NCBI RefSeq assembly: GCF_004102945.1
Contig: NZ_CP019384.1
Coordinates: forward strand, 750,001-782,000
Reading direction: 5' to 3'
Source of the DNA: Candidatus Velamenicoccus archaeovorus
GTDB lineage: Bacteria > Omnitrophota > Gorgyraeia > Velamenicoccales > Velamenicoccaceae
Length of the DNA stretch: 32,000 bases
In this document: piece after piece, positions 22,701-25,887 of the stretch
How positions within the stretch are numbered: position 1 is the stretch's first letter
Layout: each line of letters opens with the position of its first letter
Notes under the pieces: model-generated
Seen by the model: only the letters and a program-made list of their open reading frames with translations
What the model was told of the DNA's origin: nothing
Databases searched by the model: none
Made by a program: the position numbers and the translations under genes

Positions 22701-25700
22701 GGCTGTCGTCAATCCTTTAACAGGTAGTCAGCTATTGGCGGTCAGCAGTTATTCATACGACATTTTCGGTAATTTGCTGACGACGACAGATGCTCTAGGC
22801 CACACGGTGGCGACGGAATATGAGACGATATTCAATTCTTTCCCCTCGACTATCACCAATGCATTAGGTCATATGGTTTCCTATGTTTATGATCCGAAAT
22901 TTGGCGTGGTCAGTCAATTGATAGATCCTAATGCTAACTCGACCTTAACCTTCCACGATTCCTTCGGGCGTCCTACCCAAATCGTGGACGCAGACGGGGT
23001 AATTACAGAAGAATTTGATTATCCTGACTTTAATACAAAAATATCCCGGCAGGGCACTCTTGAGAAAAAAGAATATATCGATGGTTTGGCACGAAAATAC
23101 AGGATCGTTTCAAGCGGCGAAGACGGAGAAAACAGCCGTCAGATTTCGACCGAAATCTATTATGACGACAAGGGCCGGGTTGGAAAAGAATCGATAGCGC
23201 ATTATGCCGATGAGCCGGAAGCTCAGATATCATATATGAGATACGAATACGATATCCGCGGCCGGGTCAAAAAGACAATATCGGATTTCCCTGGGACGGC
23301 AAAAGATGCCGAAAACCAGATGTTTTACGTTGCACCGCTTTATACCGAGACCATCGATCCCATGGGTCATAAGAAGGGCATTCTGAAAGACGTTTATGGT
23401 AATATCATCAAGGTTACGGAATATGCCCAGGGAGGGGTTTGTGCAACAGACTATGGATATGATATCCAGAATAATTTGATCAAGGTAACGGATGCCAGGG
23501 GTAATATCTTGCAAATATGGTATGACTCTTTAGGGCGTAAGATAAAAATGGATGATCCTGATATGGGGGTTTGGACATATGAATACGATCTTGTGGGGAA
23601 TTTGATAAAGCAGACTGATGCAAAGAATCAAATTTTGGAATTCAGCTATGATGAGTTAAATCGGTTGACCTGCAAGCAGGCCGGTGGGCAAATTCTGGCC
23701 ACCTATATTTACGATGAAGCCGCTAAAGAAAATTGTATAGGCCGTCTCTCAAAAGTCGTGGATACTTCCGGATCGACGGCGTTCTTCTATGATAAGTTCG
23801 GCCGGGAAACAAAATCCATCAAGACTGTCGATGCCCATGCGTATGAGGTCAAAAGAGAATATGACGCGTGGAACCATTTGACAAGATTGATTTATCCGGA
23901 TGGCGAAGCAGTTGAATATTCTTACGACACAAATTCCGGATTTTTGGAAAGAGTGTCCAGTGCTTCGACCCCAACGGATTACGTAAATTCAATAGACTAT
24001 GACAGCCAGGGGCGTATACGCCGTATTCAATACGGTAACGGCGTAAATACAGATTATACCCATGGTCAAGACTTGAGGTTAGCGCATATATACACGGTGA
24101 GTGGTGGTGTTAATTTGCAAGACTTGAACTATATTTTTGACAAGAATGGCAACGTAGCGACCTTAACAGATAACCTGCGTAATGATATCCGTACCTACAC
24201 TTATGATGAATTTGATCGCTTGATTTATGCACAGGGCATCCCCGCCGGTGCCGGAACGCGCGACCATAATTTTCAGTACGATTGTATCGGTAATATGACG
24301 TATAAGTCCGATGTCGGTTTTATGCTCTATGGTGTAAATGCCGGGCCGCATGCCATGACGTCCGCGGGCGGCTATGGTTATCAATACGATTCTAATGGAA
24401 ATATGACGTCAGGGAAAAATAAAACCCTGGAATACGATACTGAAAATCGTATAATTAGGATAATCCAACCCGATGCCGTGACGTCGTTTATGTACGACGG
24501 TGATGGCGGGCGGGTAAAAAAGATCTCAATAAATCCGACAACTCAACAAACCCAAGAGACTCTTTATATCGGGTCGCTCTTTGAAATAAAAAAAGATTCG
24601 GCGGCTCCCGGCAATCAGGCAACGCAGATCAGGCACATTTTTGCCGGATCGACGATGGTCTGCAGCATTAGGTCTGTGGGCGGTGGGCCATCTACTACAG
24701 ATTATTATCATGGGGATCATCTGGGATCTTCAAGTATTGTTACTGACCAGAACGGTCAGCAGGTGCAGTATTTGGAATACGCGCCTTACGGTACGGTTGC
24801 TCGCAATGAAGGTGCGGACGTCGCTGCCTATAAGTTTACAGGGAAGGAATTAGACTCGACCGGTTTATACTTCTATAGTGCGCGATACTATGATCCTGAG
24901 ATCGCCAGGTTTGTCACGCCGGATAGTATCGTTCAGGCGCCATACGATCCGCAAACCCTGAATCGTTATTCCTATTGCCGCAACAATCCCCTCAAATATG
25001 TGGATCCAAGCGGCCACTCGTGGTTTAGTAAATTCTTTGGTAAAATCTTTGGTTTTATCGCTGGTGTAGTTGGAACTATATTTACTGGCAATATGATGGT
25101 TGGTTTTCAGATATTCAATTTCGTCAATTCATTTACTACTGCTGCAAATACTGGTAATTGGGGTGGATTTGCTGGTGGTTTGGCAGGTGGATTGATAGGG
25201 GGATATCTAGGAGGCGGGGTAGCTAATAGCATTTCAGGAATGCTTGGCGAACAAAGCTTTACCTTCGGCGGGGGCTTCTTGATTGGTGCTTCCGAAATGG
25301 GAGTGGCTGGTTTTGGTGGCAGTTTCGGTGGTGCGCTAGGCGACGGAGTCAGCTTTAGTGATGCCATGAAGTCGGGAGCTATGGGGTTAGGTATTGGTGC
25401 AGTAATCGGTGGCTTAATTGAGGGTTCATATCTTTCTGGAATGCAAGATTTCGCCCACGGGATGAATAGAGAATCTGTTGGGAAAGCCGCTCATGTGCAA
25501 CGTCAGATGAGTCTTGAGATTGTTGAAAGACCATTGCCAAAAATAATAAAAGATTGCATGCAGGATGATGCGGGTAATCACTGGGGGTTAAGAATAAAAG
25601 ATAATTACAATCAATTTAAGGGCGCATGGGATTTTGATTATATCGATCATAGTGTGGCAGGAAGTATAATTGTTGCTTATGGGGGGCGTGTTTTTGGGCT

Positions 25701-25887
25701 AGCAAAGTTAACAAATCAGACATGGACAATATCTATTCCGCAAAGTACTGATATAAAATATATTACAAATGTCTATGGTAATATCCAGACAAATCTTGGT
25801 CAGCATTACTATAAACTAGATTCTTATACTTGCCAGACTTGGGTGAATAACAGACTTAGTTTGAAGAATGATAACTTTTCACAATGA
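19789..25887 (+). CDS. Secreted RHS/YD-repeat polymorphic toxin (Ig/cadherin-like repeats, FG-GAP propeller, TcdB-mid region, RHS cocoon, variable C-terminal toxin)
   Basis: The start is the ATG at 19789 (RBS GAGG), with signal peptide MRKIVSVVLICAHILVFGG. It has six GDFNGD-type FG-GAP/VCBS motifs, PPDLLQRIANGIGGKTEITYSY (TcdB mid-N type) and more than 20 YD repeats (xYDxxGN/R). The RHS core ends at RYYDPEIARFVTPD...NPLKYVDPSGHSW, followed by a 289-aa variable tail. Confidence 0.9.
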   Translation: MRKIVSVVLICAHILVFGGTEEALAFSMSGSTLMMQSGAIVQGAGSRAASSFSVIQDGLGEACVGGGRGATFILESGYIATTKSNPPVLAQTISNQNWQENELKTNAFDLDDYFLGFDGHALDYSVSGNQNVVVQIDPVTHEVSFSQSPGWNGTEEVIFKAEDTGGNSVSSNEVTLQVEGVANAPVLDFIPDIYVDENQEIVITPHATDLDNDEIVYAFSAPFDAQGRWQTDFDDAGMYVITVTATDATGLVASQNVKVNVRNVNRPPVLVILPDITVQEGQLAVVTPQATDADGDAVTYYYSSPLDMAGKWLTGYDDAGSYSYSVTASDGIDTVTKNGSIVVNNVNRSPEAALTLSAYTINKGEDAVIRISSSDPDGDRLTFVLKKDGQEIASGDLNNVYEKTISFADAGDHTVSVIVADAGGLSVESSAGVDVVDPSVSTNLIFPIMGDFNGDALCDLGLYNGATGVWEVALSEGGVFTSAADWLRSGATTGEISPIGGDFNGDGKTDAGLYNKTNGELRIALSTGSELSPPVLWLDFTEDPSSWLVFSGNFNGDKYCDFGLYNKETGEVRVALSQGSGFDAMATWLAGFGTNCSVLMGDFNGDSLADFCLVNKSSGEYKVALSNGRAFVDGGVWISGFGADKESVISDYNNDGISDIGYWDKASQDWYYAVSTGENFLTKGLLGNYGSSADEFVAAGDFNGDGISDRVSYDHELIGILRWKIQIIDRRPPDLLQRIANGIGGKTEITYSYASAADNPGLPFPVQVTSEIKIIDTLPLGSPEESYDQQFVFLDGYYDAAEREFRGFGKAKAIDPITGNYTETFFYQGKPGQDGALKGQIEKIVTFDGNVRQISQVTNTYDVRKAGPADHVLGFPALIRQDTTIYEEDGSVLNTATEFNYDAIGNLLETKSLGDVSKEGDEKTTQTTYAQAYQDGLNRPLEVYLKDKDGVVVTKKSLEYDSRGNASKESMAVVNPLTGSQLLAVSSYSYDIFGNLLTTTDALGHTVATEYETIFNSFPSTITNALGHMVSYVYDPKFGVVSQLIDPNANSTLTFHDSFGRPTQIVDADGVITEEFDYPDFNTKISRQGTLEKKEYIDGLARKYRIVSSGEDGENSRQISTEIYYDDKGRVGKESIAHYADEPEAQISYMRYEYDIRGRVKKTISDFPGTAKDAENQMFYVAPLYTETIDPMGHKKGILKDVYGNIIKVTEYAQGGVCATDYGYDIQNNLIKVTDARGNILQIWYDSLGRKIKMDDPDMGVWTYEYDLVGNLIKQTDAKNQILEFSYDELNRLTCKQAGGQILATYIYDEAAKENCIGRLSKVVDTSGSTAFFYDKFGRETKSIKTVDAHAYEVKREYDAWNHLTRLIYPDGEAVEYSYDTNSGFLERVSSASTPTDYVNSIDYDSQGRIRRIQYGNGVNTDYTHGQDLRLAHIYTVSGGVNLQDLNYIFDKNGNVATLTDNLRNDIRTYTYDEFDRLIYAQGIPAGAGTRDHNFQYDCIGNMTYKSDVGFMLYGVNAGPHAMTSAGGYGYQYDSNGNMTSGKNKTLEYDTENRIIRIIQPDAVTSFMYDGDGGRVKKISINPTTQQTQETLYIGSLFEIKKDSAAPGNQATQIRHIFAGSTMVCSIRSVGGGPSTTDYYHGDHLGSSSIVTDQNGQQVQYLEYAPYGTVARNEGADVAAYKFTGKELDSTGLYFYSARYYDPEIARFVTPDSIVQAPYDPQTLNRYSYCRNNPLKYVDPSGHSWFSKFFGKIFGFIAGVVGTIFTGNMMVGFQIFNFVNSFTTAANTGNWGGFAGGLAGGLIGGYLGGGVANSISGMLGEQSFTFGGGFLIGASEMGVAGFGGSFGGALGDGVSFSDAMKSGAMGLGIGAVIGGLIEGSYLSGMQDFAHGMNRESVGKAAHVQRQMSLEIVERPLPKIIKDCMQDDAGNHWGLRIKDNYNQFKGAWDFDYIDHSVAGSIIVAYGGRVFGLAKLTNQTWTISIPQSTDIKYITNVYGNIQTNLGQHYYKLDSYTCQTWVNNRLSLKNDNFSQ
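20044..21099 (+). repeat. Four tandem Ig/cadherin-like modules (about 82-99 aa each) inside the RHS protein
   Basis: Module boundaries recur as N(A/R)PPVL...: NPPVLAQTISNQ, NAPVLDFIPDIYV, NRPPVLVILPDITV and NRSPEAALTLSAYT. Internal motifs TPxATDxDxDxxxY and DDAGxYxxxVTAxD repeat. Confidence 0.7.
21121..21960 (+). repeat. FG-GAP/VCBS beta-propeller repeats (six blades visible, period about 50 aa)
   Basis: GDFNGD, GDFNGD, GNFNGD, GDFNGD, SDYNND and GDFNGD occur at ORF-track residues 471, 522, 574, 622, 671 and 721. Each is followed by (D)xGLYNxxxGxxxVALSxG. Confidence 0.8.
25018..25884 (+). other. Variable C-terminal toxin region of the RHS protein (glycine-zipper hydrophobic segment plus terminal domain of about 130 aa, family unknown)
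   Basis: It begins right after DPSGH (25003-25017). About 140 aa are rich in GxxxG/GG motifs (GGFAGGLAGGLIGGYLGGGVANSISGMLG...). The terminal domain contains GNHWGLRI ... IDH ... YTCQTWV. Hand-counted GC drops from 34/60 (24901-24960) to 19/60 (25021-25080). Confidence 0.7.

Follow-up and report, generated by a model that had tools for sequence, protein, structure and literature searches.

A glycine-zipper module joined to a candidate permuted NlpC/P60-type domain at the C-terminus of an RHS protein from Candidatus Velamenicoccus archaeovorus

We analysed a stretch of 32,000 nucleotides (nt) of Candidatus Velamenicoccus archaeovorus (Omnitrophota; contig NZ_CP019384.1, positions 750,001 to 782,000, forward strand), hereafter the window, in whose own numbering all coordinates are given. 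It encodes an RHS protein whose C-terminal tail of 289 amino acids (aa) is the subject of this work, together with a small open reading frame (ORF) that follows it. An original prediction, made from the letters of the DNA, had seen in this tail a glycine-zipper membrane segment followed by a possible permuted Cys/His domain of LRAT or NlpC/P60 type. The locus is laid out as follows.

17833..19719, plus strand: SpvB-domain (TcB N-terminus-like) protein (Pfam SpvB, E 3.8e-22; translation)
19789..25887, plus strand: RHS/TcB-TcC-like cocoon protein (Pfam, NCBIfam; start ATG 19789, MRKIVSVVLICAHILVFGG)
24778..25017, plus strand: Rhs-associated core domain, ending ...YDPEIARFVTPD...NPLKYVDPSGH (TIGR03696, residues 1685-1764, E 6.6e-23)
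25018..25452, plus strand: glycine-zipper hydrophobic module, tail aa 1-145, ending GGLIEGSYLSGMQDFAHG (hydropathy; GxxxG enrichment)
25453..25884, plus strand: C-terminal Cys/His domain (C-domain), tail aa 146-289 (144 aa), a candidate permuted NlpC/P60-type catalytic domain
25884..26510, plus strand: candidate cognate immunity gene, "type A", 208 aa, whose start overlaps the toxin stop (ATGA)

The SpvB and RHS ORFs lie in one frame, divided by a single TAA at 19717-19719, and look like a split pair of a TcB N-terminal protein and a TcB/TcC-like cocoon. The first probably starts at the ATG at 17983, which gives it a signal-peptide-like N-terminus (MEKLLFVIGLSLFLLFPVSAFA); the second is open from 19726 to 25887 and, starting at the ATG at 19789, has a signal-peptide-like sequence of its own. 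According to Pfam and NCBIfam, the RHS protein carries Ig-like, FG-GAP and TcdB_toxin_midN domains, RHS repeats (Pfam RHS_repeat, E 1.6e-37) and the Rhs-associated core, after which comes the toxin tail. Over the final 500 residues of its core, the protein shares 57-79% identity with RHS proteins from Omnitrophota metagenome-assembled genomes (MAGs), UBA6210 being the best match, and these homologous cores bear unrelated tails. Repeats with a core ending in PxxxxDPxG[LH], a variable tip and a conserved family of small downstream ORFs are thus all present, as is characteristic of RHS polymorphic toxins.

The junction reads ...NPLKYVDPSGH/SWFSKFF..., the core model stopping at residue 1764, a His that ends at nt 25017. 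The tail therefore runs from 25018 to 25884, with the stop codon at 25885-25887, exactly as predicted in start and length, and the peptide strings quoted in that prediction are all present in the translation. By analogy with RHS and TcC proteins, DPSGH is presumed to be the site of autoproteolytic release. A collapse in GC content right after this motif had also been claimed. What stands is a local dip (34 and 29 G or C in the 60-nt blocks before the junction, 21 and 17 in those directly after it) together with a shift in GC at third codon positions (GC3): the core has 0.46-0.48, the zipper 0.345, the C-domain 0.306 and the downstream ORF 0.303. Total GC does not collapse at this point: it rebounds to 28-35 per block over the Gly-rich part, with its GGN codons, stays at 0.42-0.51 up to about 25450, and takes a lasting drop only beyond about 25600 (0.29-0.35 over 25600-26500).

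The GC3 drop shared by the tail and the downstream ORF supports a foreign cassette of tip plus immunity gene. In line with the swapped tip of the original prediction, a metagenomic locus (L008; JGI 3300038380, Ga0434945_011850) is syntenic with the window in its RHS gene, small ORFs, Methyltransf_24 gene and HisKA_7TM kinase, and bears another tip (P0013), in which the zipper is kept and the His and Cys are absent. The exchange of the tip at this syntenic locus and the distinct composition of the tip and immunity cassette are both supported by these data.

The zipper module contains about four hydrophobic Gly-rich stretches (aa 7-30, 46-76, 79-106 and 115-142). Gly accounts for 40 of its 145 residues (28%), and only 9 are charged. 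The density of GxxxG motifs noted earlier in the first ~140 aa is real and goes beyond composition: 18 occur, against 10.6±2.4 in 2000 shuffles of the same residues, only two of which reach 18, and the broader [GAS]xxx[GAS] pattern is found 42 times. All 13 first-round homologues keep the module, with G86, E93, G95, F99, G131, Y138, G141, Q143 and H147 invariant and a closing consensus GGLIEGSYLxGxQxxxHG. No curated glycine-zipper family (Gly-zipper_Omp, Gly-zipper_OmpA, Gly-zipper_YMGG, Rick_17kDa_Anti) matches the tail in Pfam at E<=1, and a profile search with the zipper gave only 6 matches, swamped by Gly-rich words.

Several polar residues within the hydrophobic zipper (E93, E135, Y138, Q143 and H147) are invariant or nearly so, the Glu standing in GFLIGAxE[MF]G and others in the closing GSYxxGxQxxxHG; they may have a role in helix packing or ion conduction. 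We also noted a public metagenome fragment of 86 aa (P0029, JGI) that is 100% identical to tail residues 92-177, which points to the same organism, or a near-identical strain, sampled elsewhere.

The tail belongs to a very rare family. Used as a query, it found 13 matches among 5.8 billion proteins, all from metagenomes or MAGs, and a profile of the C-domain, run exhaustively against 1.84 billion representatives, found 21; no Pfam domain covers the matched region in any of them. A search with the A5 alignment turned up no relative in 185,579 species-representative genomes, and tblastn of the C-domain against plasmid and phage collections gave no match. Pfam, NCBIfam and PADLOC gave no match to the tail, the C-domain or the downstream ORF, and searches of PDB sequences, with the single sequence and with a profile, returned noise only, which agrees with the earlier statement that no established toxin family was recognisable.

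The relatives that were found bear out, at the level of sequence, that zipper and C-domain recombine independently as two modules, as the proposal of a membrane-type zipper beside a separate Cys/His domain had implied. On the one hand, the zipper is joined to other C-termini in P0006, P0007, P0009, P0011, P0013 and L018. On the other, the C-domain also stands behind a different Gly/Ala-rich hydrophobic module (P0025, a 2276-aa RHS protein) and behind a YDG domain (P0014). More broadly, at loci L010-L022, which come from MAGs of Omnitrophota, Planctomycetes and Nitrospirae, a hydrophobic stretch of 130-170 aa rich in Gly and Ala stands directly after DPxGH in almost all RHS tails, ahead of unrelated C-domains; this generic module has no Pfam family.

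An alignment of 26 C-domain sequences, with identities down to ~20%, defines the conserved positions, numbered here from the start of the C-domain.

25579..25581, plus strand: His43 (NHWGLRI), candidate catalytic His at a strand start; His in 23 of 24 relatives
25636..25638, plus strand: Asp62 (WDFD), candidate third, His-orienting residue on the next strand; D19/N4/S1/K1 among 25
25810..25812, plus strand: Tyr120, 7 residues before the Cys, candidate NlpC/P60 signature tyrosine; Tyr in 25 of 25
25831..25833, plus strand: Cys127 (YTCQTWV), candidate nucleophile, where the last helix begins; Cys in 25 of 25

Beyond these, Gly77 and Gly82 are each kept in 24 of the 26 sequences, the column of Asp62 holds D, N or S in 24 of 25, and that of Asp60 holds D or E in 21 of 25. 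The H...H...C order originally read from the sequence stands for its first His and its Cys. Its middle His, that of IDH, is not a family feature, being present in 2 of 25 sequences in the alignment as computed and in about 10, all of the closest subfamily, if shifted by one residue; a triad with this residue was rejected, and Asp62 is the conserved candidate for the third position. Its role as the residue orienting the His is suggested by analogy with the order His, acid, Cys in TseH, whose triad is Glu81-His64-Cys172 (PMC11160734), and in BcPPNE (PMC3142127).

Two more distant sequences were looked at beside the family. P0032 (241 aa) has half a zipper followed by a C-domain with ...KHSYLV...ERNCYGW and is distantly related to the C-domain of the window (60% probability and P 8.6e-5 in hhalign). 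P0033 and the tail of L022 share HRFI[GS]...[RY]NSN[FY]AVNTVIY, in which a Ser takes the position at which one might look for a Cys; hhalign detected no relationship of P0033 to the family profile.

An AlphaFold2 model of the C-domain, built with a 20-sequence alignment, reached a predicted local distance difference test (pLDDT) score of 91 and a predicted TM-score (pTM) of 0.83, the five models ranging from 83 to 91; an earlier run with 8 sequences had given pLDDT 73, with one good model of five, and an uninformative Foldseek search. The elements follow in the order strand, strand (His), strand (Asp), strand, strand, helix, strand (Tyr), helix (Cys), with His43 at the start of strand 42-50 and Cys127 at the start of helix 127-135. 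The permuted NlpC/P60 enzymes, as defined by Xu et al., have a Cys/His dyad in which the His comes first, together with a third residue that is polar, a signature Tyr and a pocket of lipid type, and they are often fused to membrane-targeting modules (PMC3142127). As judged from the sequences, all four residue features of NlpC/P60 enzymes have conserved candidates in the C-domain.

Profile comparisons lead in the same direction. Using hhalign, the family profile matched human PLA2G16 (a query identical in sequence to PDB 4FA0/4DOT) with a probability of 39% and P 3.2e-4, a segment of the C-domain being paired with TNVYGNIQTNLGQ-HYYKLDSYTCQTWVNNRL; against a 25-sequence LRAT alignment the values were 33%, P 4.6e-4 and score 27.8, and overall the PLA2G16 and LRAT comparisons gave P 3-5e-4 and probabilities of 31-39%. 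As a control for the LRAT score, 200 column shuffles gave at most 20.7 (median 11), and the reversed alignment 10.5; the LRAT profile holds almost only mammalian orthologues of at least 77% identity and hence little diversity. The LRAT alignment pairs Tyr120 with Tyr106 and Cys127 with Cys113 of PLA2G16, and at a permissive threshold it extends collinearly until His43 meets His23 of PLA2G16 (in HWAIY). Tyr120, invariant and aligned to Tyr106, is a candidate equivalent of the oxyanion-side tyrosine. For PPPDE/DESI1 (PDB 2WP7, 3EBQ), P was 3.7e-3, and Cys127 lined up with DESI1's catalytic Cys. Against viral models, the top Foldseek match was a picornavirus polyprotein fragment (A0A2P1GNS5; E 4e-3, probability 1.00, TM-score 0.54), and a DUF4105 protein ranked 13th. 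We conjecture that the picornavirus match falls on the 2A H-box/NC region; a literature search on this match found nothing.

A number of observations weigh against this assignment and against a function built upon it. In the Foldseek search of 350,542 PDB chains, no match to the pLDDT-91 model was found at E<=0.001: TseH came first without significance (E 0.2, TM-score 0.27), and LRAT-family structures were absent among the best 50 matches listed. The PDB does contain structures of the LRAT family, of PPPDE and of TseH and, according to PMC3142127, of YiiX. The Cys/His arrangement was read from the order of secondary-structure elements in the model. A comparison with E. coli YiiX by hhalign detected no similarity (P 0.37-0.46), and Pfam hmmscan of 20 family members gave nothing relevant even at E<=10. 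Moreover, the LRAT target was picked after the motif had been seen, so that its P-values do not survive a database-wide correction; in a search of the size of Pfam, P 5e-4 would correspond to an E of about 10. The fragment P0027 has a Glu in the place of His43, and the substrate of the C-domain is entirely inferred.

Taken together, the LRAT, TseH and picornavirus leads are weak yet concordant, and we consider that the C-domain probably falls within the permuted NlpC/P60 superfamily. The likeness to LRAT and NlpC/P60 enzymes originally proposed thus holds in so far as several weak lines agree on it, and fails in so far as unbiased searches gave no significant match in sequence or fold; modelling and Foldseek produced a confident C-domain and assigned it to no known family.

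The small ORFs that follow the toxin genes bear on where the tail would act. The type A protein has an N-terminal signal peptide or anchor (MSVSMKKRSLFLISIVLVSFITPGNSFS), which is its only hydrophobic segment, and then a helical domain with a PPQECKRHY motif. Homologues stand right after related toxins in L067 (E 1e-53), L064 (E 7e-46), L065 (E 1e-9) and L002 (E 5e-5), and weaker or shortened ones occur in L003/L069, L004 and L006. Type A is homologous across at least six loci that have this C-domain, and it was seen solely with this C-domain. Its signal peptide or anchor, with the positive charges preceding it, suggests that the domain faces the periplasm. A cytoplasmic target was rejected in view of the signal peptide of the immunity protein.

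A different arrangement has nonetheless to be considered, in which the zipper is a translocator that carries the C-domain over the cytoplasmic membrane, as proposed for Tde1, and the C-domain is an enzyme that works in the cytoplasm and has a new fold, one with no relation to NlpC/P60. The N-terminal GxxxG motif of Tde1 is needed for membrane permeabilisation and entry (PMC10240207), the ORFs downstream of the toxins in L012 and L018 are soluble and carry no signal peptide, and the confident model found no significant Foldseek match in the PDB, all of which would fit this arrangement. It is at odds with the signal peptide or anchor of type A in the window and at least six relatives, as well as with the convergence of the four-residue signature and the LRAT, PPPDE and TseH leads on a single superfamily, and we regard it as rather improbable.

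In other loci the toxin is followed by what we call type B, namely small ORFs of 119-128 aa with four transmembrane segments (4-TM) in L063 and L066/L070, and a 227-aa 6-TM ORF in L068. The toxins concerned are of the same subfamily, with C-domains 46-63% identical. More divergent members (L001, L009) are also accompanied by 4-TM ORFs, and L064 has type A and, 550 nt further on, a 119-aa 4-TM ORF. Polytopic ORFs are found as well after zipper tails with other C-domains (L007), and BLASTP detected no mutual similarity among the small polytopic type B ORFs. Type A would neutralise the C-domain in the periplasm, by binding, and type B would act on the membrane module. That a toxin can be accompanied by just one of the two types suggests that toxicity requires both modules.

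Type B ORFs also raise the question of whether the zipper itself kills, as a pore-forming or depolarising toxin like EsxX, Tse4, Ssp6 or CdzC/D, with the C-domain as an accessory for targeting, regulation or assembly and its Cys and His not catalytic for killing. Polytopic small proteins follow the toxin in many loci, as for the immunity of pore formers, which means that the zipper alone could be toxic; 4-TM ORFs lie directly downstream in L001, L007, L009, L063 and L066/L070, and the 6-TM ORF in L068, a setting typical of immunity to membrane toxins. The GxxxG enrichment and the conserved polar E93, Q143 and H147 inside the hydrophobic stretches go along with this, and EsxX, itself a depolarising toxin of the glycine-zipper kind, has two distinct immunity families (PMC12744356). 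However, many unrelated C-domains, each followed by a different downstream gene, are preceded by such hydrophobic Gly/Ala-rich openings and in several cases by this very module, a pattern more in keeping with a carrier or anchor than with a warhead. In the window and in several relatives, moreover, the secreted type A, exclusive to this C-domain, stands alone. Over deep divergence, the Cys and Tyr are invariant and the His nearly so. Killing by the zipper itself is therefore unlikely in our view, and the module is more likely a generic anchoring or entry device than the sole killer.

Comparison with known systems places the tail among several kinds of toxins and enzymes. Closest in kind are Tox-Act1, a type VI secretion system (T6SS) effector of Salmonella, and TseH of Vibrio cholerae (Pfam DUF6695), which are permuted NlpC/P60 phospholipases that act in the periplasm and have membrane-associated immunity (PMC12994826). 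Like them (Tox-Act1 H43/C151; TseH Glu81-His64-Cys172), the C-domain is part of an interbacterial toxin, has its His before its Cys, would act in the periplasm and is paired with membrane-associated or extracytoplasmic immunity, and TseH heads, although not significantly, the PDB matches of the model. The differences are a spacing from His to Cys of 84 here versus 108 there, no similarity at the level of HMMER and no Pfam DUF6695 or DUF4105 match for the C-domain, and the carrier, which is a T6SS there and here a Sec-exported RHS/TcB-like cocoon with a fused N-terminal glycine zipper.

With LRAT/PLAAT enzymes (PF04970; human PLA2G16, PDB 4DOT, 4FA0), the C-domain shares the motifs HW[AG][IL]x[IV] and YKLxSxxCxx[FW]VN, a Tyr 7 residues before the Cys, a local succession of helix, strand, Cys and helix, and a similar His-to-Cys distance (84 here, 90 there). 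In contrast, the third residue is an Asp or Asn at +19 on a longer hairpin here and a His at +12 there, and Pfam LRAT gives no match. Those enzymes are also tethered to membranes by a transmembrane segment, in place of which the tail has an N-terminal multi-span anchor; the anchor of PLAAT proteins is C-terminal and spans the membrane once.

Glycine-zipper toxins and entry motifs, such as EsxX (PMC12744356), the N-terminus of Tde1 (PMC10240207) and the ionophores of contact-dependent inhibition (CDI) systems (PMC11630599), resemble the tail in having a Gly-zipper hydrophobic segment within a delivered toxin, in the polytopic immunity of some loci and, for EsxX, in a pair of alternative immunity families. 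No sequence relationship to them was detected, and here a 145-aa module is flanked by the RHS core on one side and a variable enzymatic domain on the other, an order that is reversed in the CDI ionophores, where the entry domain comes first and the ionophore stands at the end. RHS and Tc toxins (TcB-TcC), for their part, share the RHS repeats, TcdB_toxin_midN, the core ending in DPxG[HL], a swapped tip and an adjacent immunity gene. Against this stand the absence of TcA, PAAR and VgrG genes near the RHS gene, Sec signal peptides on both proteins, the Omnitrophota host, and the hydrophobic Gly/Ala-rich module with which related tails nearly always open.

The surroundings of the pair consist of chromosomal housekeeping and lipid-synthesis genes. 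No T6SS, CDI or TcA genes are present in the window, and a T6SS or CDI context was rejected on this ground. Just upstream of the toxin genes lies a cupin-HTH regulator (16719-17276, minus strand). It is preceded by two convergent histidine kinases (12763-14724, plus strand; 14705-16315, minus strand) with N-terminal 7TM domains (HisKA_7TM) and overlapping 3' ends. Farther away, a T2SSE-type ATPase ORF (1049-2140, plus strand) sits between ORFs for the large (16-948) and small (2192-2692) subunits of an aconitase-family enzyme, and is overlapped by an ORF of 397 aa on the opposite strand (1109-2302, minus strand).

The findings presented here incline us, by a modest measure, towards reading the tail as a two-module antibacterial (or anti-host) warhead, that is, a membrane-tethered, periplasm-facing acyl hydrolase of permuted NlpC/P60 type, for which we infer the fold family, the membrane topology and the delivery route. 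The RHS cocoon would be exported by Sec, and autoproteolysis at DPSGH would free the tail. The zipper, with its roughly four Gly-rich hydrophobic helices, would then enter the cytoplasmic membrane of the target from outside, and an even number of spans would leave the C-domain on the periplasmic face. Tethered there, the C-domain would act through Cys127, His43, Asp62 and Tyr120 as a very divergent hydrolase of the LRAT/TseH/Tox-Act1 kind. Its most likely substrates would be membrane phospholipids or lipoproteins, whose fatty-acyl groups it would cleave or transfer; an amide bond of peptidoglycan or of a peptide is a less likely target. The producer would be protected by the secreted type A protein, whose place the small 4-TM type B would take in other strains.

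That less likely target deserves consideration as an explanation in its own right, in which the C-domain is a permuted NlpC/P60 enzyme whose substrate is not a lipid but, as for the Tae and Tse1 amidases, peptidoglycan or some other peptide or amide bond. Many NlpC/P60 toxins with periplasmic immunity are indeed cell-wall amidases (PMC12994826, PMC3142127), and the immunity protein here is a periplasmic one. The characterised permuted members, however, namely LRAT/PLAAT, YiiX, Lnb, Tox-Act1 and TseH, use acyl or lipid substrates (PMC3142127, PMC11160734, PMC12994826), and the fusion to a membrane-inserting module argues for a substrate in the membrane. We hold such an activity to be very unlikely, and a lipid-directed acyl hydrolase continues to be the reading that we favour.

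As a polymorphic RHS toxin, the protein is of a general kind already known; what distinguishes it is a tip family invisible to current libraries, a recurrent membrane module and a dual pattern of immunity. A wider proposal, which we put forward tentatively and hold to be doubtful, is that the Gly/Ala-rich module is a general self-inserting device for the delivery or anchoring of RHS cocoons exported by Sec independently of T6SS, that the C-domain represents an unrecognised lipid-targeting clade of permuted NlpC/P60 enzymes, and that two unrelated immunity solutions exist, one for each module. The hosts of such cocoons are possibly predatory or epibiotic nanobacteria.

Lipid-targeting permuted NlpC/P60 toxins have been characterised only recently (Tox-Act1, TseH), and a further clade that hidden Markov models do not see would, if true, widen the class. 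It would likewise offer an experimentally tractable case of an RHS tip that gets to its substrate in the membrane with no T6SS involved. The recurrent Gly/Ala-rich module could prove to be a general entry or anchoring domain, and the two alternative types of immunity constitute a natural experiment on which of the two modules must be blocked. Finally, the C-domain family could be added to toxin-domain libraries, contributing to the annotation of MAGs from groundwater and sediment.

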